The position numbers were made by a program, and so were the translations under genes. From the IMG/VR virus record IMGVR_UViG_2850808358_000003: DNA of 27,982 nt; one strand, written 5' to 3'. A model generated the notes under the pieces. The model was given only the letters and a program-made list of their open reading frames with translations. It made no database searches and was not told the origin of the DNA. Below are positions 1 to 26,698 of this stretch, piece by piece. Within the stretch, counting starts at the first letter, position 1. Each line of letters begins with the position of its first letter. This DNA is from a virus. Its lineage: Duplodnaviria; Heunggongvirae; Uroviricota; Caudoviricetes.

Positions 1-288
1 ATGTCAACCGGATTACGTTTCACACTGGAAGTGGACGGCCTGCCACCGGATGCTTTTGCGGTGGTTTCCTTTCATCTCACCCAGTCACTCTCTTCACTTT
101 TTTCCCTCGACCTTTCTCTGGTCAGTCAGCAGTTTCTTTCCCTTGAATTTGCGCAGGTGCTGGACAAAATGGCCTACCTGACGGTATGGCAGGGCGATGA
201 CGTACAGCGGCGGGTGAAAGGTGTGGTGACCTGGTTTGAACTGGGGGAGAACGACAAAAACCAGATACTGTACAGCATGATGAGGTGT
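1..288 (+). pseudogene. vgrG: vgrG-like (T6SS spike / Rhs-associated Vgr) N-terminal fragment, 3' end removed by IS insertion
   Basis: ORF 1..327 translation MSTGLRFTLEVDGLPPDAFAVVSF... matches recalled VgrG N-termini up to ...NQILYSM; the last ~13 codons lie inside the IS inverted repeat starting at 289. Confidence 0.55.
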
Positions 289-323
289 ACTGGCAATAGC
301 GGACACTACCATTTGTTCTTTTT

Positions 324-1142
324 TTAAGCAGCCATCTGATGATATTTTTCCCTGAAGGCTGCCGGGGAGATATTCCCCAGACGAGAGTGACGACGCTGAC
401 GATTGTAGAAAATCTCAATGTATTCCCGTATTACTGAGATGGCTTCATCCCGGTTATTAAAACGATAGTGGCTCAGGCTCTCATTTTTCAGCGTTCCCCA
501 GAAGCTTTCCATCGGAGCGTTGTCGTAACAGTTACCTTTACGCGACATTGATGTTTTCAGACCAAACTGCTCCTGTATGACCCGGTAATCGTATGCGCAG
601 TACTGTGAACCTCGATCAGAGTGGTGGATTAGCCCGGCAGGTGGGCGCTGGCTCCTGAGCGCCATAAACAGGGCTTTACCTGTCAGCTCTTTTGTCATGC
701 GCTCTCCCATGGCGTAGCCGACAATTTCGCACGTATAAACATCTTTGATGCCAGCGAGGTACAACCATCCCTCCTGTGTGGCAACATACGTCAGGTCCGC
801 CACCCAGACCTGATTTGGTGCTGTAGGAGCGAACGTCTGGTTCAGCAGATTTGGCGCAACTGGCAGATTGTGGTTCGGGTTCGTAGTCGCTCTGAACTTG
901 CGTTTCTGCTTACAGCGTAGCCTTAGCTCCTTACGAAGACGTGCCAGTCGGTCACGACCAACGATGATGCCATTCTCTGCCAGCTCCGTCTGGAGCCGCC
1001 GGGTTCCATATGTTTCGCGAGTGCGGATATGTGCCACCTTAATCTCCAGTTTTAGCCGCTCATCACTTTGTTTTCTGTCTGAGGGTTCATGCTGTACCCG
1101 GTTGTAATAACCGCTCCTGGATACACCAAATACCTGACACAT
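324..1142 (-). CDS. IS3-family transposase OrfB (DDE integrase domain); normally made as OrfAB transframe fusion
   Basis: 272-aa ORF with ...HHSDRGSQY...CYDNAPMESFW... DDE-type motifs; the -1 frame from the OrfA A-run reads into this frame. Confidence 0.9.
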   Translation of the reverse strand: MCQVFGVSRSGYYNRVQHEPSDRKQSDERLKLEIKVAHIRTRETYGTRRLQTELAENGIIVGRDRLARLRKELRLRCKQKRKFRATTNPNHNLPVAPNLLNQTFAPTAPNQVWVADLTYVATQEGWLYLAGIKDVYTCEIVGYAMGERMTKELTGKALFMALRSQRPPAGLIHHSDRGSQYCAYDYRVIQEQFGLKTSMSRKGNCYDNAPMESFWGTLKNESLSHYRFNNRDEAISVIREYIEIFYNRQRRHSRLGNISPAAFREKYHQMAA

Positions 1143-1177
1143 CGCTTCAATGGGAAATTGTTGTCGCCATTGTTCGA

Positions 1178-1480
1178 TTAACGCGTATTTTTCAGCGACT
1201 CCTGTGCAAAATACGCTGTTGCTTTTTTTAATATATCTCGCTCAAGGCGAGCTTCATTTAACGCCTTACGCAGTTGCAGAATTTCAGATTCCAGTTCAGC
1301 CACCGTGCGGGAACCAGGAGTACCGAGCCCTTTTCTGGCGGCGGTAACCCATTGTCCTAAAGTGCCTTCAGGAAGGGATAATCGGGAAGCGCCTTCACTG
1401 ATCGAAAGTTGATTTTCAAGAACCGTTCTGACAGCTTCGGCTTTGAACTCTTTAGAGTAACGTTGGGTTTTTCTGCTCAT
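1178..1480 (-). CDS. IS3-family transposase OrfA (HTH), 100 aa
   Basis: Translation MSRKTQRYSKEFKAEAVRTV... as recalled for IS600 OrfA; A7G slippery run at 1222..1229 (T7 on plus strand) typical of IS3-family -1 frameshifting. Confidence 0.9.
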   Translation of the reverse strand: MSRKTQRYSKEFKAEAVRTVLENQLSISEGASRLSLPEGTLGQWVTAARKGLGTPGSRTVAELESEILQLRKALNEARLERDILKKATAYFAQESLKNTR

Positions 1481-1545
1481 TATTAGCTCCTTCTGATGCC
1501 ATTCTATTTCAGGAAGGAGTGTCCGTTAAACTCAGGCTACCTCAT

Positions 1546-1899
1546 CTACCCCAGATGAGTAATCCGAAGTTCATCCATACCACAGGTCCTGGCTATTCTG
1601 TTGTACTCCTGAACAAGAGCAAATAATTCTGAATTAGCAACCATGAACTCATCGCAAACCCTCTGTATAGCATCACTATTCAGAATAATAACGTCTCTTC
1701 CCGAAAGACGATCAGGAGTACAGAACAAAACTGTCAAACGGCTGAAGGCCTTTGCTCGTGCTGCATTGACTATATCAATACGCTGCCTAAGGATGAAACA
1801 CCCCGACGCCTCATCAATATTCACTCTACCCGCACCATATGAATGATAAATATTTAATGCTGAAAAAACCATTAGACCGTATAACAAATACTCAATCAA
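1546..1899 (-). CDS. hypothetical protein, 117 aa, AT-rich moron-position ORF downstream of phage tRNAs
   Basis: Intact ORF in AT-rich DNA where random ORFs are rare; co-directional with Q and tRNAs; stop codon 2 nt from IS end; no family recognised. Confidence 0.4.
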   Translation of the reverse strand: MIEYLLYGLMVFSALNIYHSYGAGRVNIDEASGCFILRQRIDIVNAARAKAFSRLTVLFCTPDRLSGRDVIILNSDAIQRVCDEFMVANSELFALVQEYNRIARTCGMDELRITHLG

Positions 1900-2009
1900 T
1901 ACTTAACAGAACTTTTATTTTTGACAAACATATAATATTTTCAACAATATCCTGAGCCAAGTATATTTCAGTATAAGGCTCTGCCGGAAGGAATCTGGAA
2001 GAATGAATA

Positions 2010-2086
2010 TGGCGCGCTGTACTGGATTCGAACCAGTGACCGATTGCTTAGAAGGCAATTGCTCTGTCCGGCTGAGCTAACAACGC
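2010..2086 (-). tRNA. tRNA-Arg (anticodon UCU), phage-borne
   Basis: Minus-strand 77 nt GCGTTGTTAGCTCAGCCGGACAGAGCAATTGCCTTCTAAGCAATCGGTCACTGGTTCGAATCCAGTACAGCGCGCCA; cloverleaf with 7-bp acceptor, GGTTCGAATCC T-loop, anticodon loop CTTCTAA, encoded CCA. Confidence 0.85.
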
Positions 2087-2186
2087 TGAATACCGATAAT
2101 GGACCGCCATCGGGGACCCGCCCCCGCACCAACAACCCTGTTATCGTGTCGTCTGCTCTTCCTGATAAGCTAATGCCGGTTTGTGA

Positions 2187-2262
2187 TGGTGGCCCTTGCT
2201 GGATTTGAACCAGCGACCTGGCGATTATGAGTCGCTCGCTCTCACCACTGAGCTAAAGGGCC
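2187..2262 (-). tRNA. tRNA with anticodon CAU, tRNA-Ile2 (lysidine)-like, alternatively elongator Met
   Basis: Minus-strand 76 nt GGCCCTTTAGCTCAGTGGTGAGAGCGAGCGACTCATAATCGCCAGGTCGCTGGTTCAAATCCAGCAAGGGCCACCA; close to recalled E. coli ileX; anticodon loop CTCATAA. Confidence 0.8.
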
Positions 2263-2288
2263 GGGAGCAGAATAATAACGGTCCGTAA

Positions 2289-2313
2289 TTAATTTCGCAA
2301 TAAAAAATCCGCT
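2289..2313 (-). terminator. short GC hairpin plus U-tract (tR'-like) downstream of late promoter
   Basis: Minus strand CCCGCCGCTGAGCGGATTTTTTATT; short stem CCGC/GCGG then T6. Confidence 0.35.
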
Positions 2314-2362
2314 CAGCGGCGGGTTGTAGAAACTCTTCTAACGTCAGGCATAAAACGCCCAT

Positions 2363-2390
2363 CGTTATGACGAATTTACCACAGATTCCG
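2363..2390 (-). promoter_or_regulatory. candidate late promoter (pR'-like) immediately downstream of Q-like gene
   Basis: Minus strand TTGATT (2385..2390) - 16 nt - TAAATT (2363..2368); position matches pR' in lambdoid phages. Confidence 0.35.
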
Positions 2391-2416
2391 GAAAAATCAA
2401 CCTTGTTACCTTGTTA
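2391..2416. repeat. three tandem 8-bp direct repeats TTGTTACC / TTGTTACC / TAGTTACC overlapping the Q-like stop codon
   Basis: Plus strand ccTTGTTACCTTGTTACCTAGTTACC directly read. Confidence 0.5.
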
Positions 2417-3235
2417 CCTAGTTACCTTTTTTAACTGCCGCTCAGCCCATGCTTCTTCAATATCAAACCGGGTCACCAGCGCATCATAAAATTTCTTAAC
2501 TGTTTTTTCCCATGACGCGCGTGTTATCTGGTTTGTCACCTCGCATATAGCATTAAATGCCTCCGTTGATGGTAGTCTTTCATAGCCACGACCACCACAA
2601 CGCTGGCAGTCTCTGATAACAGGCATACCACGTTTTACCGACTCTTCACGATGAATGGCGACACCACGCCCACGGCAATCCTTACAGGCGGTGGAAACCT
2701 CACCCTTTCCGCCACACTCCGGACAGGCAACTTTTACCACCTCCCTGACTTTTTTCCATTCTTCCCAGTAAGACGGATACACACCTTTCGTACACTTTGC
2801 CCATACCGGCGGCTTACCATCCGGATACTGGACCTTGTTTGTAAAAACTATGCTTTCAATAAATTTTTCCCCATAGCAACAAGGGCACTGCTTTTTACTC
2901 GCTGCGCTGCGGGCATAATCCTCAAAAGCGTACGAAGCCATAATGCGCATCACTACCGGTTTTATTTCTGCCGGAAGTTTTCTCAACGCCGCCACACGAT
3001 CGCACCGACTGAGTGCATAATCTGCCAGTAATTCTGTTGCCCGCGCCCTGTCATTCATACTGATGCCCATTTTCCCCAGGAACGCAGAAAAACCCATCTC
3101 AGCCCGATTCTGTGTCATGCCCTGCGCGGCCATCACATCAGTGATACTCAGCGCATCTTTTGACGTTGAGGCCGATGCATCGGTCAGGCCAGGGGATTTT
3201 GGGGAGTAGTATTTCGGTAAATCTTCCAGTTTCAT
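2414..3235 (-). CDS. Q-like late antiterminator candidate with four CxxCxGxG zinc-finger repeats (273-aa ORF; true start may be downstream)
   Basis: Position between rusA and the pR'-like promoter/tRNAs; CPCCYGEK, CPECGGKG, CKDCRGRG, CQRCGGRG motifs; family assignment by position, not verified. Confidence 0.5.
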   Translation of the reverse strand: MKLEDLPKYYSPKSPGLTDASASTSKDALSITDVMAAQGMTQNRAEMGFSAFLGKMGISMNDRARATELLADYALSRCDRVAALRKLPAEIKPVVMRIMASYAFEDYARSAASKKQCPCCYGEKFIESIVFTNKVQYPDGKPPVWAKCTKGVYPSYWEEWKKVREVVKVACPECGGKGEVSTACKDCRGRGVAIHREESVKRGMPVIRDCQRCGGRGYERLPSTEAFNAICEVTNQITRASWEKTVKKFYDALVTRFDIEEAWAERQLKKVTR

Positions 3236-3249
3236 TTTTTGACCTGCTC

Positions 3250-3607
3250 TTAATGCATTATGGGGTAAATCTTCACCCCCAGACGTCCACCAGATACTGG
3301 CTGACCACGAACGATATTGATTTCATCAAACTGCTCATCGTCCATTAACACTCCCGCATGCGTCAGCGCATCCAGCGGTGCTTTCAGGATATTGTCGCAG
3401 GTCGCGACGACGCTTATCCGGTGGCTCTGCAATCACCTTTATCGCCAGCCTTCCGGACAGGCTTAATTTCAGCCGCTGCTGGCGAACAATAAGCGCCACA
3501 GCCCGGCGATAACGCTTTCCCTCCTCCGAGATAAAATATGTGCTGCCACGGCGTCGCCAGTAAGTGTTCACCGTCGGCGGGTAAGGTAAAACCAAATCTA
3601 TGAGCAT
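3250..3607 (-). pseudogene. rusA: rusA Holliday-junction resolvase, frameshifted
   Basis: ORF 3335..3607 carries the RusA N-terminal part (...PPDKRRRDL) and ORF 3250..3432 the C-terminal part (DNILKAPLDALTHAGVLMDDEQF...) in another frame; extra C near 3396..3400. Confidence 0.75.
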
Positions 3608-3619
3608 CAGTCACCTCTT

Positions 3620-4669
3620 TTACCCAAGCACGCCAGTTGCAAAGGCGTGATCAAGAAAACGAAAAATTAAATCAACCTGAGAACCATGCTTTTCTTCGAA
3701 CGCCAGAGGATCCGCATGAAGCTCGTTGTGATGCTCCCGACACAGCGGTAGCGTGAAAATATCGTGAGATTTTGTCCCCATTCCGCCCTGACCATGACCA
3801 ATCAGGTGATGGGGATCGTCGGCTGGCTTACCACAACACGCACACGGCTGTGTCTTCACCCAGCGTTTGTATTTCTCGTTAACCCAGCGGCGACGTTTAG
3901 GTCGTTTCATGAAAGATTCCGGAGACTCAGGATCAACGGCAATGCTGACCACCGTCTTTTCCTGTGGTGGGTTCTGTTGCTGGTGGGCGTGAGGCAGCGG
4001 CGCAAGATTTTTTGTGCGCTGTTTCAGTATGCTGGTGGCGGTCTGCTCTCCCGGTACGATGTCGCTTTCACGGTACATTGAGCGGATTTTTTCCGCACGC
4101 AACCCCAGCGAACGACGTAATACCGCTTCCGGTAGCGCGTCCGCCACCTGATTGCGGACCGCCCACCAGGATAATTCAGCCAGAGATAGTTCACGCTCCT
4201 GCGTACCGCTTATTGCGTGACCGATGACGTCAATCATCCATGCTGACAGGTTTTGATGAGCAAGTTGCTCGAGTGATTCGGATGTCTGGTCACGCAGCTG
4301 GTTGTCGCAGTGCCAGCACAACACCATTGCGCCGGTACCATAACGGTGAATGACGGTTTCGCTGTGATGATAATCGCCGTGTGGCCACTGGCAGGATTTA
4401 ATATGGCGCAACAGCCAGTCAGACAATGCACCAGCACCACCAGCAGCACGAATCACCCGTGCGTTACTGAAAAACGGCAGCAATGTTTTGTCTTCCACCA
4501 GCGGCTGGCGAGCGGCAGGAACGACCCCGGACGGCAGATTACGCATGCTTTTCGGTTCCGGCTCCACCAGTAACCGGGTATTGTGGAATACCGGCATGGA
4601 TTCACGACCGGGCTTAAGGACCACCAGCCCGAGTTCCGGAACCAGAACAGGTCGAAGTAATACCCGCAC
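3620..4669 (-). CDS. ydfU: DUF968-family prophage protein (YdfU-like) with C-terminal HNH-like Cys/His motif
   Basis: 349-aa ORF; C-terminus CACCGKPADDPHHLIGHG...LCREHHNELH; GTG start as predicted; frame remains open ~75 nt upstream. Confidence 0.6.
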   Translation of the reverse strand: MRVLLRPVLVPELGLVVLKPGRESMPVFHNTRLLVEPEPKSMRNLPSGVVPAARQPLVEDKTLLPFFSNARVIRAAGGAGALSDWLLRHIKSCQWPHGDYHHSETVIHRYGTGAMVLCWHCDNQLRDQTSESLEQLAHQNLSAWMIDVIGHAISGTQERELSLAELSWWAVRNQVADALPEAVLRRSLGLRAEKIRSMYRESDIVPGEQTATSILKQRTKNLAPLPHAHQQQNPPQEKTVVSIAVDPESPESFMKRPKRRRWVNEKYKRWVKTQPCACCGKPADDPHHLIGHGQGGMGTKSHDIFTLPLCREHHNELHADPLAFEEKHGSQVDLIFRFLDHAFATGVLG

Positions 4670-4670
4670 G

Positions 4671-4949
4671 TTACCTCCAGATCCGTTGCTGGAATGTGCG
4701 GGACGGACGCGGTGGCTGTTCGGAGTAAGGGAGCCTGACGGAGATTATCCAGTGACGGTAGTCGAGGCTAAGGGCTTTTTTAACCTCGCATCCGCGCCTG
4801 CGGTAACACTGAATGAGCCATTCGGCCTGTTCTTCAGTGCATGAGGGATGCTGGTACCAGTCTGACTTAAATGCGTGAGAATACCGCTCGTGCGTGTGGG
4901 CAAGAACGGTCGAATTATCATGATTGTAATATTTTGCGTTGCGTGCCAT
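4671..4949 (-). CDS. hypothetical protein, 92 aa, immediately upstream of ydfU-like gene
   Basis: ORF MARNAKYYNHDNSTVLAHTHERYSH...; may be the 5' part of a frameshifted longer DUF968 gene. Confidence 0.35.
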   Translation of the reverse strand: MARNAKYYNHDNSTVLAHTHERYSHAFKSDWYQHPSCTEEQAEWLIQCYRRRGCEVKKALSLDYRHWIISVRLPYSEQPPRPSRTFQQRIWR

Positions 4950-5015
4950 CGGTTTTCTCCGGTGGCACGGTGTTACTCAGCGGGAGTTCAGCCCCGCGCA
5001 AGATTGTAGATGAGT

Positions 5016-5267
5016 TTATTCTTCTGAAAAAGCAGAAAAGCCAGCTTTTATTCCGATCTCTTTCAATGCCTGTAATGAAGTGACAAACTCACCGTCGCGC
5101 AAGATAAATCCGTCCGTCACTCGGGCATCCACAAAATTAATTAACGCAGCCCCATTTTTTTGCAAACACACAATGCGGTAATGACTAACAATATTTCCAT
5201 TTTCAACGCACACAGCATAGAGGCCATCTTCACAAAAAATTTTACGCAGTTCTTCGATGTTCATCAT
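5016..5267 (-). CDS. rem: Rem-like small prophage protein, 83 aa
   Basis: Translation MMNIEELRKIFCEDGLYAVCVENG... as recalled for K-12 Qin rem; position between hokD and ydfU as in Qin. Confidence 0.7.
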   Translation of the reverse strand: MMNIEELRKIFCEDGLYAVCVENGNIVSHYRIVCLQKNGAALINFVDARVTDGFILRDGEFVTSLQALKEIGIKAGFSAFSEE

Positions 5268-5389
5268 CAGAATCCTTCCAGATAAATAGCACTCCCCTGT
5301 TCGGGGTCCATCCCTCTTATCCCTGCGCGCTACTTAAGTATTTTTGATTCTATTCCGGCACCATCCAGAACTTCAAATGCGTTGAAAAT

Positions 5390-5414
5390 AAAAACAAAAA
5401 CCCGCCGAAGCGGG
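5390..5414 (-). terminator. intrinsic terminator after relB-relE-hokD operon
   Basis: Minus strand CCCGCTTCGGCGGG hairpin (UUCG loop) followed by TTTTTGTTTTT. Confidence 0.6.
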
Positions 5415-5484
5415 TTAAGTGCGGGTGCGTTGAGGATGCCTGCCACATCAGAGGTGGCGAGGGATTTCTCACTCGCCGGGTCTC

Positions 5485-5640
5485 TTACTCCTCAGGTTCG
5501 TAAGCTGTGAAGACAGCGACCTCCGTCTGGCCGGTTCGGATTCGTACCTCGCAGAGGTCTTTCCTCGTTACCAGTGCCGTCACTATGACGGTTAAACAGA
5601 TGACGATCAGGGCGATTAACATCGCCTTTTGCTGCTTCAT
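5485..5640 (-). CDS. hokD: HokD/RelF type I toxin, 51 aa (not in ORF track, below length cutoff)
   Basis: Manual translation of minus strand: MKQQKAMLIALIVICLTVIVTALVTRKDLCEVRIRTGQTEVAVFTAYEPEE*. Confidence 0.85.
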   Translation of the reverse strand: MKQQKAMLIALIVICLTVIVTALVTRKDLCEVRIRTGQTEVAVFTAYEPEE

Positions 5641-5711
5641 AGCCTGCTTCTCCTGTCAACGCAAAGCAGAAGTGTCACCTTCGGTGCGAAACAGAGATGT
5701 CATGCTTTGGT

Positions 5712-5999
5712 TCAGAGAATGCGTTTGACCGCCTCGCTATATACTTCCGAGCGTTCTCTTTTCCCAACAGAAATCACGAAAACGACAACTTTCTCGTCTA
5801 TAACCTGGTATACAAGGCGATAGCCTGAAGACCGGAGCTTAATCTTGTAACAATCAGGCATACCACGGAGCTTGTTTGCTTCAATCCGGGGTGACTCAAG
5901 TACTTCAACCAGCTTCTTTTTCAACTGTTCACGTACCGTCGAGCCCAGCTTTCGCCATTCCTTTAGTGCCCGCTCGTCAAAATCCAGAAAATACGCCAT
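5712..5999 (-). CDS. relE: RelE mRNA-interferase toxin
   Basis: 95-aa translation matches recalled K-12 RelE essentially end to end. Confidence 0.95.
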   Translation of the reverse strand: MAYFLDFDERALKEWRKLGSTVREQLKKKLVEVLESPRIEANKLRGMPDCYKIKLRSSGYRLVYQVIDEKVVVFVISVGKRERSEVYSEAVKRIL

Positions 6000-6238
6000 C
6001 AGAGTTCATCCAGCGTCACACGTACTGGCTTAGGATTACGAAGCCGTTCTTTCACTATCTCCACAAGTTCAGCATCTTCATCACTCAGGAGTGTCTGTTT
6101 GAACGGCAAGCGTTCATTGTCAGCGATATACTCGAGCATGAGACGAAGCGCTTCAGAAGGAGTTACACCCATTTTTTCAAGCGCGGCGTAAGAACGCGCT
6201 TTAAGTTCATCGTCAATACGCAGGTTAATGCTACCCAT
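5999..6238 (-). CDS. relB: RelB antitoxin
   Basis: 79-aa translation MGSINLRIDDELKARSYA... matches recalled RelB; stop overlaps relE start. Confidence 0.95.
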   Translation of the reverse strand: MGSINLRIDDELKARSYAALEKMGVTPSEALRLMLEYIADNERLPFKQTLLSDEDAELVEIVKERLRNPKPVRVTLDEL

Positions 6239-6239
6239 G

Positions 6240-6300
6240 TCTTACACCTCTTGTAATTACAAATGTCATTACAAGTATCGCACTACAACATGCTTAGGGC
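6240..6300 (-). promoter_or_regulatory. relBE promoter/operator region with palindromic TTGTAAT repeats
   Basis: TTGTAATTACAAATGTCATTACAA at 6251..6274, 13 bp upstream of relB start. Confidence 0.5.
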
Positions 6301-6453
6301 AAGTCACGAAGGAAGTCAGAAAGTAGTCGTAAGAACGGTGATCACTGTCCGCTTTGTGCCAGGAGCAGCCATTGCTAAGTCCATCCTGTTGAGGTAGCCT
6401 GAGTTTAACGGACACTCCTTCCTGAAATAGAATGGCATCAGAAGGAGCTAATA

Positions 6454-6756
6454 ATGAGCAGAAAAACCCAACGTTACTCTAAAGAGTTCAAAGCCGAAGC
6501 TGTCAGAACGGTTCCTGAAAATCAACTTTCGATCAGTGAAGGCGCTTCCCGATTATCCCTTCCTGAAGGCACTTTAGGACAATGGGTTACCGCCGCCAGA
6601 AAAGGGCTCGGTACTCCTGGTTCCCGCACGGTGGCTGAACTGGAATCTGAAATTCTGCGACTGCGTAAGGCGTTAAATGAAGCTCGCCTTGAGCGAGATA
6701 TATTAAAAAAAGCAACAGCGTATTTTGCACAGGAGTCGCTGAAAAATACGCGTTAA
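6454..6756 (+). CDS. IS3-family transposase OrfA (copy 2; L28P and Q68R relative to copy 1)
   Basis: Same 100-aa protein as 1178..1480 with two substitutions. Confidence 0.9.
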   Translation: MSRKTQRYSKEFKAEAVRTVPENQLSISEGASRLSLPEGTLGQWVTAARKGLGTPGSRTVAELESEILRLRKALNEARLERDILKKATAYFAQESLKNTR

Positions 6757-6791
6757 TCGAACAATGGCGACAACAATTTCCCATTGAAGCG

Positions 6792-7211
6792 ATGTGTCAG
6801 GTATTTGGTGTATCCAGGAGCGGTTATTACAACCGGGTACAGCATGAACCCTCAGACAGAAAACAAAGTGATGAGCGGCTAAAACTGGAGATTAAGGTGG
6901 CACATATCCGCACTCGCGAAACATATGGAACCCGGCGGCTCCAGACGGAGCTGGCAGAGAATGGCATCATCGTTGGTCGTGACCGACTGGCACGTCTTCG
7001 TAAGGAGCTAAGGCTACGCTGTAAGCAGAAACGCAAGTTCAGAGCGACTACGAACCCGAACCACAATCTGCCAGTTGCGCCAAATCTGCTGAACCAGACG
7101 TTCGCTCCTACAGCACCAAATCAGGTCTGGGTGGCGGACCTGACGTATGTTGCCACACAGGAGGGATGGTTGTACCTCGCTGGCATCAAAGATGTTTATA
7201 CGTGCGAAATT
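6792..7211 (+). pseudogene. IS3-family transposase OrfB, 3'-truncated at codon ~140
   Basis: Identical to copy 1 OrfB through ...GIKDVYTCEI, then diverges at the junction. Confidence 0.85.
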
Positions 7212-8494
7212 TTTCCCGCGAGGTTGAAGCGGCATGGAAAGAGTTTGCCGAGGATGACTGCTGCTGCATTGACGTTGAGCGGAAACGCACGTTTACCATG
7301 ATGATTCGGGAAGGTGTGGCCATGCACGCCTTTAACGGTGAACTGTTCGTTCAGGCCACCTGGGATACCAGTCCCTCGCGACTGTTCCGGACACAGTTCC
7401 GGATGGTCAGCCCGAAGCGCATCAGCAACCCGAACAATACCGGCGACAGCCGGAACTGCCGTGCCGGTGTGCAGATTAATGACAGCGGTGCGGCGTTGGG
7501 ATATTACGTCAGCGAGGACGGCTATCCTGGCTGGATGCCGCAGAAATGGACATGGATACCCCGTGAGTTACCCGGCGGGCGCGCCTCGTTCATTCACGTT
7601 TTTGAACCCGTGGAGGACGGGCAGACCCGCGGTGCAAATGTGTTTTACAGCGTGATGGAGCAGATGAAGATGCTCGACACACTGCAGAACACGCAGCTGC
7701 AGAGCGCCATTGTGAAGGCGATGTATGTCGCCACCATTGAGAGTGAGCTGGATACGCAGTCAGCGATGGATTTTATTCTGGGCGCGAACAGTAAGGAGCA
7801 GCGGGACAAGCTGACCGGCTGGATTGGTGAAATTGCCGCGTATTACGCCGCAGCACCGGTCCGTCTGGGAGGCGCAAAAGTGCCGCACCTGATGCCGGGG
7901 GACTCACTGAACCTGCAGACGGCTCAGGACACGGATAACGGCTACTCCGTGTTTGAGCAGTCACTGTTGCGGTATATCGCTGCCGGGCTGGGTGTCTCGT
8001 ATGAGCAGCTTTCCCGGAATTACGCCCAGATGAGCTACTCCACGGCACGGGCCAGTGCGAACGAGTCGTGGGCGTACTTTATGGGGCGGCGAAAATTCGT
8101 CGCATCCCGTCAGGCGAGCCAGATGTTTCTGTGCTGGCTGGAAGAGGCCATCGTTCGCCGCGTGGTGACGTTACCTTCAAAAGCGCGTTTCAGCTTTCAG
8201 GAAGCCCGCAGCGCCTGGGGGAACTGTGACTGGATAGGCTCCGGTCGTATGGCCATCGATGGTCTGAAAGAAGTACAGGAAGCGGTGATGCTGATAGAAG
8301 CCGGACTGAGTACCTACGAGAAAGAGTGCGCAAAACGCGGTGACGACTATCAGGAAATTTTTGCCCAGCAGGTCCGTGAAACGATGGAGCGCCGTGCAGC
8401 CGGTCTTAAACCGCCCGCCTGGGCGGCTGCGGCATTTGAATCCGGACTGCGACAATCAACAGAGGAGGAGAAGAGTGACAGCAGAGCTGCGTAA
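7212..8494 (+). pseudogene. B: lambda portal protein B, lacking roughly the first 107 codons
   Basis: ORF 7166..8494 from residue ~16 onward matches recalled lambda gpB C-terminal ~426 aa; first 15 residues are IS-derived. Confidence 0.9.
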
Positions 8495-9794
8495 TCTCCC
8501 GCATATTGCCAGCATGGCTTTTAATGAGCCGCTGATGCTTGAACCCGCCTATGCGCGGGTTTTCTTTTGTGCGCTTGCAGGCCAGCTTGGGATCAGCCGC
8601 CTGACGGATGCGGTGTCCGGTGACAGCCTGACTGCCGGAGAGGCACCCGCGACGCTGGCGTTATCCGTTAATGATGACGGACCACGACAGGCCCGCAGTT
8701 ATCAGGTCATGAACGGCATCGCCGTGCTGCCGGTTTCCGGCACGCTGGTCAGCCGGACGCGGGCGCTGCAGCCGTATTCGGGGATGACCGGTTACAACGG
8801 CATTATCGCCCGTCTGCAACAGGCTGCCAGCGACCCGATGGTGGACGGCATTCTGCTGGATATGGACACGCCCGGCGGAATGGTGGCAGGGGCATTTGAC
8901 TGCGCTGACATCATCGCCCGTGTGCGTGACATAAAGCCGGTATGGGCGCTGGCCAATGACATGAACTGCAGCGCAGGTCAGCTGCTTGCCAGTGCCGCCT
9001 CCCGGCGTCTGGTCACGCAGACCGCCCGGACAGGCTCCATCGGCGTCATGATGGCTCACAGTAATTACGGTGCTGCGCTGGAGAAACAGGGCGTGGAAAT
9101 CACGCTGATTTACAGCGGCAGCCATAAGGTGGATGGCAACCCCTACAGCCATCTACCGGATGATGTCCGGGAAACACTGCAGTCCCGGATGGATGCAACC
9201 CGCCGGATGTTTGCACAGAAGGTGTCGGCATATACCGGCCTGTCCGTGCAGGCTGTGCTGGATACCGAGGCTGCAGTGTACAGCGGTCAGGAGGCCATTG
9301 ATGCCGGACTGGCTGATGAACTTGTTAACAGTACCGATGCGATCACCGTCATGCGTGATGCACTGGATGCACGTAAATCCCGTCTCTCAGGAGGGCGAAT
9401 GACCAAAGAGACTCAATCAACAACTGTTTCAGCCACTGCTTCGCAGGCTGACGTTACTGGCGTGGTGCAAGCGACGGAGGGCGAGAACGCCAGCGCTGCG
9501 CAGCCGGACGTGAACGCGCAGATCACCGCAGCGGTTGCGGCAGAAAACAGTCGCATTATGGGGATCCTCAACTGTGAGGAGGCTCACGGACGCGAAGAAC
9601 AGGCACGCGTGCTGGCCGAAACCCCTGGTATGACCGTGGAAACGGCCCGCCGCATTCTGGCAGCTGCACCACAGAGTGCACAGGCGCGCAGTGACACTGC
9701 GCTGGATCGTCTGATGCAGGGGGCACCGGCACCGCTGGCTGCAGGTAACCCGGCATCTGATGCCGTTAACGATTTGCTGAACACACCAGTGTAA
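8475..9794 (+). CDS. C: lambda C, prohead protease / minor capsid protein (S49 family); GTG start
   Basis: Translation from GTG at 8475 (VTAELRNLPHIASMAFNEPLMLEP...) matches recalled lambda gpC; start overlaps B stop. Confidence 0.9.
   Translation: MTAELRNLPHIASMAFNEPLMLEPAYARVFFCALAGQLGISRLTDAVSGDSLTAGEAPATLALSVNDDGPRQARSYQVMNGIAVLPVSGTLVSRTRALQPYSGMTGYNGIIARLQQAASDPMVDGILLDMDTPGGMVAGAFDCADIIARVRDIKPVWALANDMNCSAGQLLASAASRRLVTQTARTGSIGVMMAHSNYGAALEKQGVEITLIYSGSHKVDGNPYSHLPDDVRETLQSRMDATRRMFAQKVSAYTGLSVQAVLDTEAAVYSGQEAIDAGLADELVNSTDAITVMRDALDARKSRLSGGRMTKETQSTTVSATASQADVTGVVQATEGENASAAQPDVNAQITAAVAAENSRIMGILNCEEAHGREEQARVLAETPGMTVETARRILAAAPQSAQARSDTALDRLMQGAPAPLAAGNPASDAVNDLLNTPV
9189..9794 (+). 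CDS. Nu3: Nu3 scaffolding protein (in-frame internal start within C)
   Basis: In-frame ATG at 9189 (MDATRRMFAQ...) 606 nt before the C stop, as recalled for lambda Nu3. Confidence 0.6.
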   Translation: MDATRRMFAQKVSAYTGLSVQAVLDTEAAVYSGQEAIDAGLADELVNSTDAITVMRDALDARKSRLSGGRMTKETQSTTVSATASQADVTGVVQATEGENASAAQPDVNAQITAAVAAENSRIMGILNCEEAHGREEQARVLAETPGMTVETARRILAAAPQSAQARSDTALDRLMQGAPAPLAAGNPASDAVNDLLNTPV

Positions 9795-9803
9795 GGGATG
9801 TTT

Positions 9804-10136
9804 ATGACGAGCAAAGAAACCTTTACCCATTACCAGCCGCTGGGCAACAGTGACCCGGCTCATACCGCAACCGCGCCCGGCGGATTGAGTGCGAAAGCGC
9901 CTGCAATGACCCCGCTGATGCCGGACACCTCCACCCGTAAGCTGGTTGCGTGGGATGGCACCACCGACGGTGCTGCCGTTGGCATTCTTGCGGTTGCTGC
10001 TGACCAGACCAGCACCACGCTGACGTTCTACAAGTCCGGCACGTTCCGTTATGAGGATGTGCTCTGGCCGGAGGCTGCTAGCGATGAGACGAAAAAACGG
10101 ACCGCGTTTGCCGGAACGGCAATCAGCATCCTTTAA
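9804..10136 (+). CDS. D: lambda D head decoration protein
   Basis: [27 protein letters not shown]... matches lambda gpD. Confidence 0.9.
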
Positions 10137-10153
10137 CCTTACCCTTCATCACT

Positions 10154-10178
10154 AAAGGCCGCCTGTGCGGCTTTTTTT
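10154..10178 (+). terminator. D-E intergenic GC hairpin with T7 tract (terminator-like / mRNA structure)
   Basis: GCCGC-CTGT-GCGGC followed by TTTTTTT. Confidence 0.4.
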
Positions 10179-10191
10179 ACGGGATTTTTTT

Positions 10192-11217
10192 ATGTCGATG
10201 TACACAACCGCCCAGCTGCTGGCGGCAAATGAGCAGAAATTTAAGTTTGATCCGCTGTTTCTGCGTCTCTTTTTCCGTGAGAGCTATCCCTTCACCACGG
10301 AGAAAGTCTATCTCTCACAAATTCCGGGACTGGTAAACATGGCGCTGTACGTTTCGCCGATTGTTTCCGGTGAGGTTATCCGTTCCCGTGGCGGATCCAC
10401 CTCTGAATTTACACCGGGATATGTCAAGCCCAAGCATGAGGTGAATCCGCAGATGACCCTGCGTCGCCTGCCGGATGAAGATCCGCAGAATCTGGCGGAC
10501 CCGGCTTACCGCCGCCGTCGCATCATCCTGCAGAACATGCGAGACGAAGAGCTGGCCATTGCTCAGGTCGAAGAGATGCAGGCCGTTTCTGCCGTGCTCA
10601 AGGGCAAATACACCATGACCGGTGAAGCCTTCGATCCGGTTGAGGTGGATATGGGCCGCAGTGCGGCGAACAACATCACGCAGTCCGGCGGCACGGAGTG
10701 GAGCAAGCGTGACAAGTCCACGTATGACCCGACCGACGATATCGAAGCCTACGCGCTGAACGCCAGCGGCGTGGTGAATATCATCGTGTTTGACCCGAAA
10801 GGCTGGGCGCTGTTCCGTTCCTTCAAAGCCGTCAGGGAGAAGCTGGATACCCGTCGCGGCTCTCATTCCGAACTGGAGACAGCGGTAAAAGACCTGGGCA
10901 AAGCGGTGTCTTATAAGGGAATGTATGGCGATGTGGCCATCGTCGTGTATTCCGGACAGTACGTGGAAAACGGCGTCAAAAAGAACTTCCTGCCGGACAA
11001 CACGATGGTGCTGGGTAACACTCATGCACGCGGTCTGCGCTCCTATGGCTGTATTCAGGATGCGGATGCATTGAGTGAGGGTATTAATGCGTCTCCCCGT
11101 TATCCGAAAAACTGGAAGACATCCGGCGATCCGGCGCGAGAGTTCACCATGATTCAGTCAGCACCGCTGATGCTGCTGGCTGATCCTGATGAGTTCGTGG
11201 CCGTTCAACTGGCGTAA
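10192..11217 (+). CDS. E: lambda E major capsid protein
   Basis: MSMYTTAQLLAANEQKFKFDPLFLRLFF... matches lambda gpE. Confidence 0.95.
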   Translation: MSMYTTAQLLAANEQKFKFDPLFLRLFFRESYPFTTEKVYLSQIPGLVNMALYVSPIVSGEVIRSRGGSTSEFTPGYVKPKHEVNPQMTLRRLPDEDPQNLADPAYRRRRIILQNMRDEELAIAQVEEMQAVSAVLKGKYTMTGEAFDPVEVDMGRSAANNITQSGGTEWSKRDKSTYDPTDDIEAYALNASGVVNIIVFDPKGWALFRSFKAVREKLDTRRGSHSELETAVKDLGKAVSYKGMYGDVAIVVYSGQYVENGVKKNFLPDNTMVLGNTHARGLRSYGCIQDADALSEGINASPRYPKNWKTSGDPAREFTMIQSAPLMLLADPDEFVAVQLA

Positions 11218-11258
11218 TCATGGCCCTTCGGGGCCATTTTCTCTCTGTGGAGGAGTCC

Positions 11259-11654
11259 ATGACGAAAGATGAACTGATTGCCCGTCTTCAGGTGCTGGGT
11301 GAGCAACTGAACCGTGATGTCAGCCTGACGGGGACGAAAGAAGAACTGGCGCTCCGTGTGGCAGAGCTGGAAGAGGAGCTTGATGACACGGATGACGCAG
11401 CCGGTCAGGACACGTCTGTCAGCCCGGAAAATGCGCTGACCGGACATAAAAATGAGGTGGTATCAGAACAGACGGATACCGTGACTGATACGGCTGCTCT
11501 GGTCACGGTCGTGGCACTGGTGACGCTGCATACCGATGCACTTCACGCCACGCGGGATGAACCTGTGGCATTTGTGCTGCCGGGAACGGCGTTTCGTGTC
11601 TCTGCCGGTGTGGCAGCCGAAATGACAGAACGTGGCCTGGCCAGAATGCAATAA
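11259..11654 (+). CDS. FI: lambda FI DNA-packaging protein
   Basis: MTKDELIARLQVLGEQLNRDVSLTGTKEELALRVAEL... matches lambda gpFI. Confidence 0.85.
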   Translation: MTKDELIARLQVLGEQLNRDVSLTGTKEELALRVAELEEELDDTDDAAGQDTSVSPENALTGHKNEVVSEQTDTVTDTAALVTVVALVTLHTDALHATRDEPVAFVLPGTAFRVSAGVAAEMTERGLARMQ

Positions 11655-11665
11655 CGGGAGGCGCT

Positions 11666-12019
11666 GTGGCTGATTTCGATAACCTGTTCGATGCTGCCAT
11701 TGCCCGCGCCGATGAAACGATACGCGGGTACATGGGAACGTCAGCCACCATGACATCCGGTGAGCAGTCCGGCGCAGTAATACGTGGTGTTTTTGATGAC
11801 CCTGAAAATATCAGCTATGCCGGACAGGGCGTGCGCGTTGAAGGCTCCAGCCCGTCCCTGTTTGTCCGGACTGATGATGTGCGGCAACTGCGGCGTGGAG
11901 ACACGCTGACCATCGGTGAGGAAAACTTCTGGATAGACCGGGTTTCGCCGGATGATGGTGGAAGCTGTCATCTCTGGCTTGGGCGGGGCGTACCGCCTGC
12001 CGTTAACCGTCGCCGCTGA
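11666..12019 (+). CDS. FII: lambda FII head-tail joining protein; GTG start
   Basis: MADFDNLFDAAIARADETIRGYMG... matches lambda gpFII. Confidence 0.9.
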   Translation: MADFDNLFDAAIARADETIRGYMGTSATMTSGEQSGAVIRGVFDDPENISYAGQGVRVEGSSPSLFVRTDDVRQLRRGDTLTIGEENFWIDRVSPDDGGSCHLWLGRGVPPAVNRRR

Positions 12020-12030
12020 AAGGGGGATGT

Positions 12031-12579
12031 ATGGCCATAAAAGGTCTTGAGCAGGCCGTTGAAAACCTCAGCCGTATCAGCAAAACGGCGGTGCCTGGTG
12101 CCGCCGCAATGGCCATTAACCGCGTTGCTTCATCCGCGATATCGCAGTCGGCGTCACAGGTTGCCCGTGAGACAAAGGTACGCCGGAAACTGGTAAAGGA
12201 AAGGGCCAGGCTGAAAAGGGCCACGGTAAAAAATCCGCAGGCCAGAATCAAAGTTAACCGGGGGGATTTGCCCGTAATCAGGCTGGTTAACGCGCGGATT
12301 GTCCTGTCCCGACGCAGGCGTCGTAAAAAGGGGCAGCGTTCAGCCCTGAAAGGTGGCGGCAGCGTGCTTGTGGTGGGAAACCGTCGTATTCCCGGCGCGT
12401 TTATTCAGCAACTGAAAAATGGCCGGTGGCATGTCATGCAGCGTGTGGCCGGGAAAAACCGTTACCCCATTGATGTGGTGAAAATCCCGATGGCGGTGCC
12501 GCTGACCACGGCGTTTAAACAGAATATTGAGCGGATACGGCGTGAACGTCTTCCGAAAGCGCTGGACTATGCGCTGTAG
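12031..12579 (+). CDS. Z: lambda Z tail completion protein, ends at in-frame TAG 10 codons before the ancestral stop
   Basis: MAIKGLEQAVENLSRISKTAVPG... matches lambda gpZ; frame continues HQLRMVIKR to TGA at 12607..12609 overlapping the U start. Confidence 0.85.
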   Translation: MAIKGLEQAVENLSRISKTAVPGAAAMAINRVASSAISQSASQVARETKVRRKLVKERARLKRATVKNPQARIKVNRGDLPVIRLVNARIVLSRRRRRKKGQRSALKGGGSVLVVGNRRIPGAFIQQLKNGRWHVMQRVAGKNRYPIDVVKIPMAVPLTTAFKQNIERIRRERLPKALDYAL

Positions 12580-12605
12580 CATCAACTGAGGATGGTAATA
12601 AAGCG

Positions 12606-13001
12606 ATGAAACATACTGAACTCCGTGCAGCCGTACTGGATGCACTGGAGAAGCATGACACCGGGGCGACGTTTTTTGATGGTCGCCCCGCTGTTTTTGA
12701 TGAGGCGGATTTTCCGGCAGTTGCCGTTTATCTCACCGGCGCTGAATACACGGGCGAAGAGCTGGACAGCGATACCTGGCAGGCGGAGCTGCATATCGAA
12801 GTTTTCCTGCCTGCTCAGGTGTCGGATTCAGAGCTGGATGCGTGGATGGAGTCCCGGATTTATCCGGTGATGAGTGATATCCCGGCACTGTCAGATTTGA
12901 TCACCAGTATGGTGGCCAGCGGCTATGACTACCGGCGCGACGATGATGCGGGCCTGTGGAGTTCAGCCGATCTGACTTATGTCATTACCTATGAAATGTG
13001 A
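12606..13001 (+). CDS. U: lambda U tail terminator protein
   Basis: [26 protein letters not shown]... matches lambda gpU. Confidence 0.9.
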
Positions 13002-13008
13002 GGACGAT

Positions 13009-13749
13009 ATGCCAACACCAAATCCTCTGGCACCGGTGAAAGGGGCCGGGACCACCCTGTGGGTTTATAACGGGAGCGGCGACCCTTATGCAAACCCGCT
13101 TTCAGACAATGACTGGTCGCGTCTGGCAAAGGTTAAAGACCTGACGCCCGGCGAACTGACCGCTGAGTCCTATGACGACAGTTATCTCGATGATGAAGAT
13201 GCGGACTGGGCCGCGACCGGACAGGGGCAGAAATCTGCCGGAGATACCAGCTTCACGCTGGCGTGGATGCCCGGAGAGCAGGGGCAGCAGGCGCTGCTGG
13301 CGTGGTTTAATGAAGGTGATACCCGTGCCTATAAAATCCGCTTCCCGAACGGCACGGTCGATGTGTTCCGCGGCTGGGTCAGCAGTATCGGTAAGGCGGT
13401 GACGGCGAAGGAAGTGATCACCCGCACGGTGAAAGTCACCAACGTGGGACGTCCGTCGATGGCAGAAGATCGCAGCACGGTAACAGCGGCAACCGGCATG
13501 ACCGTGACGCCTGCCAGCACCTCGGTGGTGAAAGGACAGAGCACTACGCTGACCGTGGCATTCCAGCCGGAAGGCGCAACCGACAAGAGCTTCCGTGCGG
13601 TGTCTGCGGATAAAACAAAAGCCACCGTGTCGGTCAGTGGTATGACCATCACCGTGAAAGGTGTTGCTGCAGGCAAGGTCAACATTCCGGTCGTATCCGG
13701 TAATGGTGAACTTGCTGCGGTTGCAGAAATCAACGTCACCGCCCGTTAA
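13009..13749 (+). CDS. V: lambda V major tail protein with C-terminal Ig-like domain
   Basis: [33 protein letters not shown]... matches lambda gpV. Confidence 0.9.
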
Positions 13750-13764
13750 TCCGGAGAGTCAGCG

Positions 13765-14188
13765 ATGTTCCTGAAAACCGAATCATTTGAACATAACGGT
13801 GTGACCGTCACGCTTTCTGAACTGTTAGCCCTGCAGCGTATTGAGCATCTTGCCTGGTTGAAAAGAGCAGGAAAAAAAGGCTGAATCCAGTGGCAACCTG
13901 CAGGTGTCTGTAGAGGAGCTTATCAGAGGCGGGGCGTTTCTGGTGGCGATGTCTCTGTGGCATAACCATCCACAGAAGACAAAGCTGCCGTCCATGAATG
14001 AAGCCATTACGCAGATTGAGCAGGAAGTGCTTACCACCTGGCCCACGGAGGCAATTGCTCAGGCTGAAAACGTGGTGTTACGTCTGTCCGGAATGTCTGA
14101 GTTTGTGGTGAATGATGCTCCTGAACAGACAGAGGACGCCGGGCCTGCAGAGCCTGTTTCTGCGGGAAAGTGTTCGACGGTGAGCTGA
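13765..14188 (+). pseudogene. G: lambda G tail assembly chaperone, disrupted by +1 frameshift in an A7 run
   Basis: Frame from ATG 13765 stops at 13882..13884 after MFLKTESFEHNGVTVTLSEL...; rest of G (ORF 13904..14188) is in the +1 frame; A7 at 13872..13878. Confidence 0.8.
14164..14170 (+). promoter_or_regulatory. programmed -1 ribosomal frameshift slippery heptamer G GGA AAG (G to G-T)
   Basis: GGGAAAG near the end of G, in phase with the G frame; T frame is the -1 frame. Confidence 0.75.
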
Positions 14189-14604
14189 GTTTTGCCCTGA
14201 AACTGGCGCGTGAGATGGGGCGACCCGACTGGCGTGCCATGCTTGCCGGGATGTCATCCACGGAGTATGCCGACTGGCACCGCTTTTACAGTACCCATTA
14301 TTTTCATGATGTTCTGCTGGATATGCACTTTTCCGGGCTGACATACACCGTCCTCAGCCTGTTTTTCAGCGATCCGGATATGCATCCGCTGGATTTCAGT
14401 CTGCTTAACCGGCGCGAGGCTGACGAAGAGCCTGAAGATGATGTGCTGATGCAGAAAGCGGCAGGGCTTGCCGGAGGCGTCCGCTTTGGCCCGGACGGGA
14501 ATGAAGTTATCCGCGCTTCCCCGGATGTGGCGGATATGACGGAGGATGACGTAATGCTGATGACAGTATCAGAAGGGATCGCAGGAGGAGTCCGGTATGG
14601 CTGA
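14170..14604 (+). CDS. T: T segment of the G-T tail assembly chaperone (no independent start; made by frameshifting)
   Basis: ORF 14170..14604 translation matches lambda gpT; stop overlaps H start. Confidence 0.75.
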   Translation: MFDGELSFALKLAREMGRPDWRAMLAGMSSTEYADWHRFYSTHYFHDVLLDMHFSGLTYTVLSLFFSDPDMHPLDFSLLNRREADEEPEDDVLMQKAAGLAGGVRFGPDGNEVIRASPDVADMTEDDVMLMTVSEGIAGGVRYG

Positions 14605-14837
14605 ACCGGTAGGCGATCTGGTCGTTGATTTGAGTCTGGATGCGGCCAGATTTGACGAGCAGATGGCCAGAGTCAGGCGTCATTTTTCCGGTACGGAAAG
14701 TGATGCGAAAAAAACAGCGGCAGTCGTTGAACAGTCGCTGAGCCGACAGGCGCTGGCTGCACAGAAAGCGGGGATTTCCGTCGGGCAGTATAAAGCCGCC
14801 ATGCGTATGCTGCCTGCGCAGTTCACCGACGTGGCCA
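14597..14837 (+). pseudogene. H: lambda H tape-measure protein, first ~80 codons only
   Basis: MAEPVGDLVVDLSLDAARFDEQMARVRRHF...AQFTDVAT matches lambda gpH N-terminus, then diverges into I sequence out of frame. Confidence 0.85.
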
Positions 14838-15440
14838 CGCATCTGCCTTTACGGGGATTTACAACGATTTGGCCGCCGCATCGACCTTCGTGTAAAAACG
14901 GGGGCTGAAGCCATCCGGGCGCTGTCCACACAGGTCCCGGCATTTCGTCAGAAACTGAGTGACGGCTGGTATCAGGTACGGATTGCCGGGCGTGATGCAG
15001 GTGAAACCGAATTGTCTGCCCGTCTTAATGAGCCGCTGGCAAATGGTGCCGTGATCCACATCGTGCCGCGTCTGGCGGGAGCTAAAAGCGGCGGTGTGCT
15101 TCAGGTGGTGCTGGGGGCGGCGCTGATTGCGGTGGCATGGTGGAACCCTGTGGGCTGGCTGGGTGCCGCGGCTGTATCGGGCATGTATGCGGCAGGGGCC
15201 AGTATGATCCTGGGCGGAGTGGCGCAGATGCTGGCACCGAAAGCCAGGACGCCCACGGCAGCAAGTACAGATAACGGCAAACAGAACACCTATTTCTCCT
15301 CACTGGATAACATGGTTGCCCAGGGCAATGTTCTGCCTGTTCTGTACGGTGAAATGCGCGTGGGGTCACGCGTGGTTTCTCAGGAGATCAGCACGGCAGA
15401 TGAAGGGGATGGTGGTCAGGTTGTGGTGATTGGTCGTTGA
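14838..15440 (+). pseudogene. I: lambda I tail assembly protein, 5'-truncated (from about codon 15) and joined to H'
   Basis: From ~14838 the frame reads RICLYGDLQRFGRRIDLRVKTGAEAIRAL... matching recalled lambda gpI; no start codon until TTG at 15012. Confidence 0.85.
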
Positions 15441-15497: not shown

Positions 15498-20336
<4,839 letters not shown>

Positions 20337-24234: not shown

Positions 24235-24809
24235 TGGCATTCAGAATGAGTGAACAACCACGGACCATAAAAATTTATAATCTGCTGGCCGGAACTAATG
24301 AATTTATTGGTGAAGGTGATGCATATATTCCGCCTCATACAGGTCTGCCAGCAAACAGTACCGATATTGCACCGCCAGATATTCCGGCTGGCTTCGTGGC
24401 TGTTTTCAACAGTGATGAGTCATCGTGGCATCTCGTTGAAGATCATCGGGGTAAAACAGTTTATGACGTGGCGTCAGGGGACGCGTTATTTATTTCTGAA
24501 CTCGGTCCGTTACCGGAAAATGTTACCTGGTTATCGCCGGAAGGGGAGTTTCAGAAGTGGAACGGCACAGCCTGGGTGAAGGATACGGAAGCAGAAAAAC
24601 TGTTCCGGATCCGGGAGGCGGAAGAAACAAAAAACAACCTGATGCAGGTAGCCAGTGAGCATATTGCGCCGCTTCAGGATGCTGCAGATCTGGAAATTGC
24701 AACGGAGGAAGAAATCTCGTTGCTGGAAGCATGGAAAAAGTATCGGGTATTGCTGAACCGTGTTGATACGTCAACTGCACAGGATATTGAATGGCCAGCA
24801 CTGCCGTAG
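24234..24809 (+). CDS. tfa: tail fibre assembly protein Tfa
   Basis: [37 protein letters not shown]... matches lambda Tfa; start overlaps stf stop. Confidence 0.9.
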
Positions 24810-24889
24810 GGTAAAACATATAAATTCTATAATTAGATGTATCTTTCCATTTACGGCAAGGAAGGGGCTTGGAAGACGTAAAGCATCTC

Positions 24890-25365
24890 ACACCGAGATC
24901 TGTTCTTCATTTAACACAGGTGGTCGACCAAAACGTTTCCCTGCGCCGCGGGCTCTTACTATCCGGAATGAGTGCGTTCAAGTAAAAGGTCTCGTTCAAA
25001 TTCAGCGACTGCTGAAATTACTTGCATCATCATTTTTCCTGTTGGACTGGTCAGGTCAATGCCCCCAATGCTAAGCAATGCACTCTGATACCTGTTTCGG
25101 TCAGTTGTTCCACTGTTTTCCTGATATCCATTGCATTACAACCAAGGCGATCCAGTTTTGTCACAATCAATTGATCACCACATTTCAGGCGAGCAAGCAA
25201 CCGGTTAAAACCAGGACGCTCACTGGTTGCTGCTGAGCCGCTAATGTGTTCTTCGATTATTTGCTGAGGTTTGATTTTAAAACCTGCACTTTCGATTTCC
25301 CGGCGTTGATTTTCGGTGGTCTGATCCAGCGTTGATATCCGACAGTAAGCAAAAATTCGAGACAT
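24890..25365 (-). pseudogene. pin: Pin/Gin/Hin-family serine DNA invertase remnant: intact catalytic N-terminus (25051..25365), frameshifted and lacking the C-terminal HTH
   Basis: [28 protein letters not shown]... stops at 104 aa; recombinase sequence continues in other frames ([34 protein letters not shown], then RARGAGKRFGRPPVLNEEQ) and ends near 24890. Confidence 0.8.
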
Positions 25366-25915: not shown

Positions 25916-26698
25916 GAAGATATTCCTTAAAATATTATTGATTTTCATTGCGATATTGTATGTCTGATTCAGGATATGTTGACTTATACATCGGTTTTGT
26001 CTGGGTTATTGGATATGCCAATCCCTAATTTTATTAGGGCATGACTAAAAATGCTGAATATGATAAGGAGAGATGTGATTATCAGTATGCTGTTCATATA
26101 GCCTCGAATTAGTAATGTGTTATATATGATATAGTTGACAATTTTTATCTTGGGTATTCTTAAAGTTCGTAGATAAACATTGTCGTTTCAGGTATACAGG
26201 AATGCTAACAGGTGGCAGCAAAAATCAGGCGGTTTATGGCGCAAGCTGAAGCGGCAACTGCAAACTATCTTATGCAGAGACTCTACACGGATTGGGTTTA
26301 AAAGTATACATAGATAAGAGTTTTTATCTGAAAAAGAAAAATATCAAGGTGATATAGCCTATATGCCTTTGATGCGGAGGAATGAATGTGATGGGAGTGA
26401 TGTATCTGAATAGTTGAAAAACCGCAGACACGCCTTATGCAGGAACGTGCTGCGGCTGGCTGATGCACTTTCGAGAGTGCATGTATTGAATTATTTCCAG
26501 CTATTATCGATTTTACGCATAAATCCATGAAAAAACTACTTATCTGTTGGGGAGTTTTTTTGGGGCATATATGGGACAGAAATAGGCCCAGATAGACACT
26601 GAGATCGAACTTAGGATGCTTTTTAAAAAATGCAACTATCTGAAAAAAACTAGAAAACGCCAAGGAAACCACAGGATGGGAAAAAATACCTGTGAATT

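Follow-up and report, generated by a model that had tools for sequence, protein, structure and literature searches.

The tail assembly gene G of the prophage analysed here is broken by a single extra A in a short adenine run, which alignment with intact relatives shows to be a change from A3 to A4 at positions 13861-13864, and the longer A7 run that precedes the stop codon is native. Positions are those of the window, that is, the whole stretch of viral DNA analysed (27,982 nucleotides), which holds a prophage at the Qin locus, adjoining ydfJ. Comparison with other assembled sequences has shown the extra base to be private to one assembly, CP026877.1. It is probably a homopolymer consensus error, with an intact G in the real bacterium, although we infer this error rather than see it in reads. 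The frameshift is harmless whether it is an error or a mutation, in a prophage that is already dead, and there is nothing new in it: the extra A is an error of the assembly or else an ordinary frameshift in a prophage that no longer works.

The G–T locus and the extra base

The ATG at 13765 opens a 39-codon reading frame (MFLKTESFEHNGVTVTLSELLALQRIEHLAWLKRAGKKG), which is ended by the in-frame TGA at 13882-13884, with the A7 tract lying within the frame just ahead of the stop codon. The position of this stop, right after A7, can be read directly off the sequence, as it was in an earlier note on this DNA, which also held correctly that the remainder of G, the GGGAAAG heptamer, and the T frame are intact downstream. 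The 3' part of G is open to 14188, and T runs for 144 codons. Its description of G as interrupted holds for the deposited sequence, in which the gene is divided into the 39-aa ORF and a separate 94-aa ORF assigned by Pfam to the lambda tail assembly chaperone G (PF06894, Phage_TAC_2).

The features of a lambda-type G/GT chaperone locus are otherwise all present, including the G domain in both fragments, the T domain in the -1 frame, which overlaps G at its 3' end, and the slippery heptamer in phase shortly before the stop of G. The G/T pair also lies in the expected position, between V, upstream, and the truncated remnant of H, downstream (Table 1), and the GGGAAAG stretch is invariant in lambda and in every aligned relative (five aligned sequences). 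In sequence and position, and by its slip site and T frame, the locus belongs to the lambda G/GT family, and its sole failing is the interruption of G, whose ORF is stopped by the TGA between the start codon and the slip site in the deposited sequence. In the protein collection, the exact 144-aa T sequence is found on 42 contigs, annotated as phage tail assembly protein T, and the 39-aa G product on one contig only, CP026877.1 (GCA_002950035.1, 5,129,092 bp). The exact V, Z, and U proteins are recorded under Shigella boydii.

Table 1. Coordinates of the features in and around the G–T region of the window.
Feature	Position	Strand	Evidence or remarks
Major tail protein V, 246 aa as called	13009..13749	+	Directly upstream of G; Pfam Phage_TTP_12 + Big_2
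5' fragment of G, 39-aa ORF	13765..13884	+	PF06894 positions 1-35, E=1.3e-14
Lesion: A4 run, A3 in every relative (one extra A)	13861..13864	+	Alignments; repair restores the 140-aa S. boydii G
3' part of G	13865..14188	+	Open in the +1 frame relative to ATG 13765; PF06894 positions 49-125, E=4.3e-29
A7 run, native, unmutated	13872..13878	+	GAA AAA AAG = Glu-Lys-Lys in the intact frame; same in intact G genes
Slippery heptamer G_GGA_AAG (GGGAAAG)	14164..14170	+	Programmed -1 shift from G to T; phase verified
T reading frame, 144 codons, intact	14170..14604	+	PF06223 (minor tail protein T); -1 relative to the 3' part of G
Tape measure gene H remnant, about 81 of 859 codons, then out-of-frame K-end sequence	14597..14908	+	PF06791 positions 2-31 only
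H-to-K deletion junction, imperfect repeat of ~19 nt (TCACCGACGTGGCCACGCA in H, TCACCGGGAATGGCACGCA in K)	14822..14841	+	Colinearity break relative to L001
IS4 in J, 13-bp target duplication, transposase itself frameshifted	18039..19462	+	

The lesion was mapped by aligning the window with the intact G of the E. coli O22:H8 strain 154 prophage, phage Turner, and phage PhiR46_1, and with lambda. The stretch GGAAAAAAAGG is common to the window and the intact G genes of strain 154, Turner, and PhiR46_1, and the sole difference in length is TTGAAAAGAG in the window versus TTGAAAGAG in these relatives, which is the extra A of the A4 run. This gap is the only one; it is found 8 nt upstream of the A7 run (window TTGAAAAGAGCAGG, relatives TTGAAAGAGCAGG) and falls at 13861 in every pairwise comparison. 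The intact frame crosses the A7 run as CAG GAA AAA AAG GCT (Gln-Glu-Lys-Lys-Ala). With the extra A, the ribosome would read GCA GGA AAA AAA GGC TGA and then stop, and the A7 run would be merely the first stretch read out of frame.

Of the 5,426 complete E. coli genomes, 3,509 contain a relative of the G–T region, as do 81 phage records, and the best of these relatives are 98% identical and one base shorter. The exact A3+A7 pattern is present in 43 viral contigs and 20 metagenome contigs, and an intact 140-aa G ORF, with GGGAAAG in place, is found at 53 of the 57 complete loci that carry it. As the close intact relatives have the same A7, and most of the complete loci with A3+A7 have an intact G, the A7 run is native. 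When one A is removed from the A4 run, the sequence becomes ...LAWLKEQEKKAESSGN... (KEQEKK) and encodes a 140-aa protein, which is an exact match to a protein on 24 contigs, all of them named Shigella boydii.

The earlier note had placed the frameshift in the A7 run, which does not agree with the alignments, given that the relatives with an intact G keep A7 and the extra A is found at 13861-13864. It had proposed that the length of this run be compared in related prophages, and the comparison returns A7 in the intact G genes and no A6 ancestor in the collections searched. Its further suggestion, that reads with A6 would overturn the frameshift, targets the wrong run, as the relevant contrast is A3 versus A4 at 13861-13864, with A7 unchanged. 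A stop codon right after a long homopolymer does not, then, prove that the homopolymer has mutated, and it was only the relatives that located the lesion, 8 nt upstream.

Decay of the prophage

The module to which G belongs carries other inactivating lesions, namely, the H-to-K deletion, the IS4 copy in J, and an IS3-family element. The window is colinear with an intact relative (L001) up to 14841, and then again within the last 60 nt of K, so that the deletion, of approximately 4 kb, takes out M and L entirely and the greater part of both H and K. The same deletion was sought among E. coli genomes, and none was found with it. In the sister lineages, the place of this junction is taken by a different fusion, between H and L, with a 715-aa product. 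Upstream, a partial IS3-family element stands in for the terminase, W, and the 5' end of the portal gene.

The IS4 copy in J is old and diverged. Including the target duplication, it spans 18026-19475 of the window (9001-10497 in L069), and an IS4 is inserted at the same site in E. coli FDAARGOS_536, 21AR0173, and AREA_492. In FDAARGOS_536, the remnant that bears the IS4 is found beside sitABCD and icd instead of at the Qin locus, pointing to an old insertion that has been moved between loci or lineages by recombination.

The deletion of H has a direct bearing on G. The gpG and gpGT proteins work by coating gpH, the tape measure protein, and bringing in gpV, the tail tube protein (PMC5009743, PMC3296357), and with H cut to some 81 codons, they would have no client. 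As H is deleted, the state of G is therefore without consequence for the cell or for phage production. The earlier note overlooked the deletion in the tape measure gene, which makes the state of G functionally irrelevant. The biological weight of the frameshift is thus small, in a gene of a dead prophage whose partner protein is gone.

A number of other features of the window are recorded here in their own right. In positions 1-7212, two inverted IS3-family copies are found (one at approximately 290-1544 on the minus strand, the other partial and on the plus strand, at 6390-7212), and the segment between them carries minus-strand prophage genes, which run against the direction of the late genes. 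These include a rusA-like gene (3335-3607), tRNA-Arg(tct) and tRNA-Met(cat) (2010-2262), and a gene for a ParE-like toxin (5712-5999). This arrangement has the appearance of an inversion mediated by IS elements. An N-terminal fragment of VgrG is located at 1-327.

At the other end of the window, a pinQ-like invertase (25051-25365 on the minus strand, and 24899) is present as a frameshifted allele with a 104-aa fragment. As this allele is present in 332 collection blocks, it is a real and common pseudogene allele. Relative to L001, approximately 128 bp are missing from the window in the interval from pin to the tail fibre assembly gene, and an Rfam match to IS009 (220.9 bits) lies inside this gene, at 24577-24775 on the plus strand. 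Two proteins were considered as lineage markers and rejected. The tail fibre protein was set aside as a marker of the pin region, given that the gene with a GTG start is not on record and the product of the ATG start is found on this contig only, and the tfa protein is far too widespread.

Assembly error or mutation

Whether the frameshift reflects decay or a sequencing error is the right question, as the earlier note put it, and the distribution of the extra base among other sequences bears on it directly. For the 80-base stretch around the lesion, neither the 5,426 complete E. coli genomes nor the plasmid collection contained a match of at least 99% identity, and the exact A4+A7 pattern has no match in the GTDB representative genomes, the metagenome contigs, or the viral contigs. 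The close relatives, which were sampled as contigs found through look-ups of exact proteins, include three independent assemblies that encode exactly the same V protein, and each of these is identical to the window save for one A. The first (L083, Logan SRR6049580) is identical over 7765-14893 of the window (7.1 kb), except for the extra A, and diverges after 14893. The second (L072, QWSJ01000267.1) has no mismatches in 4,028 bases apart from the extra A, and ends at 14037 of the window, before the H-to-K junction, and the third (L073, Logan DRR015988) has none in 2,209 bases, again apart from the extra A. Both L083 and L073 span the H-to-K deletion junction and share it.

As a heritable lesion, the extra A would be expected in relatives, and it is reproduced in none of these three assemblies and in none of the 24 contigs with the same G allele. 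The S. boydii assemblies of the sister lineage also have A3, and are set apart from the window by 4-6 substitutions and, in V, an in-frame indel of 9 bp. This indel, at 13277-13285 of the window, splits two S. boydii sublineages, with V proteins of 246 aa and 243 aa.

What was found here is a homopolymer that differs by one base in length in a single assembly, which otherwise agrees with independent ones, and this is the form that a consensus error takes. From its accession range, CP026877.1 is probably a PacBio-only assembly of an S. boydii chromosome. Another record of this series, CP026832, appears in PMC10132075 as PacBio data of Kim et al. 2018. The window contains three further private 1-nt deletions, at 24868 (G5 to G4), 24965 (C3 to C2), and 26590 (C4 to C3), which are absent from all seven comparators, including one (L106) with only four substitutions in 3.9 kb, and the deletion at 26590 is also missing from two sister-lineage assemblies (L096 and L097). 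On the basis of these comparisons, all three are likely consensus errors. The deletion at 24965 falls inside the pin remnant. The window thus has four private homopolymer indels versus about four private substitutions in roughly 11.5 kb, a ratio typical of consensus error, and not of mutation.

The pattern is stronger still in the sister assembly CP026845.1 (L095), of the same accession series, where comparison with L097, a draft of the same lineage, shows six 1-nt deletions private to CP026845.1 in 15.7 kb, and five of the six fall in G or C runs. These deletions sit in the protease gene, Z, K, and ydfI, and beside the start of J, and they split the protease gene, Z, and chromosomal genes such as ydfI. 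The terminase and ydfJ of this assembly are fragmented too, outside the stretch aligned to L097. The extra A in G is likewise comparable to the known homopolymer indel errors of long-read-only assemblies, being a one-base, private change with further private homopolymer indels alongside it, both in this assembly and in its sister.

Some of the observations stand against an artefact, however. The event in G is an insertion in a short A run, whereas every other suspected long-read error, in this assembly or its sister, is a deletion, and only one of these lies outside a G or C run. No G/C-run deletion is found in the 7.6 kb around G (7213-14841 of the window), and the assemblies used for comparison come from other isolates, rather than from the same strain. 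In addition, the 104-aa pin allele, which is an apparent homopolymer frameshift in the same window, is real and widespread.

Some of these observations also speak for the main alternative, that the extra A is a genuine and very recent private +1 insertion, which would represent the neutral decay of a chaperone gene following the loss of its client through the H-to-K deletion. The decaying state of the prophage, described above, is in keeping with this alternative. Short homopolymers are the usual sites of spontaneous frameshifts, and the location of the extra A fits such an event, which is also unlike the error-like deletions in G and C runs. Set against this are the absence of the extra A from the relatives with the same G allele or the same V, the other private homopolymer indels of the assembly, and the lack of any private substitutions in 7.1 kb, because of which a real private indel is unlikely a priori. 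A genuine insertion is, then, a possible but distinctly less likely origin for the extra A than an error in the consensus sequence.

A third possibility is that the frameshift is real but partly compensated by slippage of the RNA polymerase on A7, or by +1 slippage of the ribosome, as a leaky “savior” indel. Compensated indels in homopolymers are known (PMC5009743), and either the +1 re-pairing of the tRNA-Lys in AAA AAA G or a transcript with A6 would give the downstream frame of G. If this were true, a small share of the transcripts or ribosomes would make a full-length G variant (KRAGKK) from a pseudogene of a Shigella prophage remnant. This is very improbable, nevertheless, given the setting of the A7 run, which has no hungry codon or stop codon in the A site and no slow codon after it. 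The local RNA fold is not significant (z = -1.37), and no Rfam family matches at G. Efficient transcriptional slippage needs runs of about nine or more, and A7 is shorter; neither a long run (approximately nine or more A/T) nor a stimulatory element was found. The arrangement is a singleton, and is not conserved, and G has no tape measure protein left as a partner. Slippage by -1 on A_AAA_AAA, in turn, would enter the third frame, which closes quickly.

The least credible account, with next to no chance of being correct, is that of the earlier note, in which A7 is an expanded A6 and the expansion is the frameshift: the loss of one A from A7 does restore the reading frame, as the note had claimed, but the resulting protein (...LKRAGKKAESS..., KRAGKK) is nowhere among approximately 15 billion sequences, the A4+A6 DNA pattern has no match in the viral contigs, all of the intact relatives have A7, the gap aligns at 13861 in each comparison, and two events (A3 to A4 and A6 to A7) would be needed, rather than one, so that this reading was ruled out.

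With a consensus error as the preferred reading, the practical lesson is that lone homopolymer frameshifts in this long-read-only accession series should not be taken for pseudogenes without read support. The pseudogene counts derived from the series may be inflated, which affects the counts used to describe genome decay in Shigella.

Comparison with lambda and with intact S. boydii prophages

The programmed -1 frameshift of lambda G/G-T was described by Levin et al. 1993, and is reviewed in PMC5009743 and PMC3296357. In a G gene of the lambda type, a frameshift frequency of approximately 4% yields gpGT, which is required in tail assembly (PMC3296357, PMC5009743). Lambda is 93.7% identical to the window at the DNA level from the end of V, through G and T, to the start of H, and shares with it the order V-G-T-H, the G_GGA_AAG heptamer in the same phase, and the same T frame. 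The window differs from lambda in the G ORF, which is interrupted from codon 34 onward by the one extra A, and in the deletion of the client gene, H. The central part of the G allele is also different, being KEQEKKAESSGNLQVSVEE in the window and KRQAEQAESDSNRKFTVED in lambda.

The intact allele has a further feature in this part of the gene, where the A7 run gives rise to a heptamer, A_AAA_AAG, in phase (GA A AAA AAG), at the place of 13872-13879 of the window and at the same position in L001, L003, L004, and L006-L068. Lambda does not have this heptamer, and reads GCA GAA CAG at the same place. The A_AAA_AAG sequence is of the dnaX type, the most shift-prone -1 site in E. coli (PMC5009743), and a -1 slip on it in the intact allele would read GGC TGA, giving a 39-aa peptide that ends at the same TGA as that of the window. 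The effect of this heptamer in the intact allele is probably marginal.

Other close counterparts are the S. boydii prophages with an intact G at the same locus (P0107; for example, CP026845.1, AAVBZG010000068.1, and SRR6049580). Their flanking DNA is identical to that of the window, and their G protein is identical to that of the window once one A is removed. Unlike the window, these prophages have A3 at the position of 13861-13864, and encode the 140-aa G.
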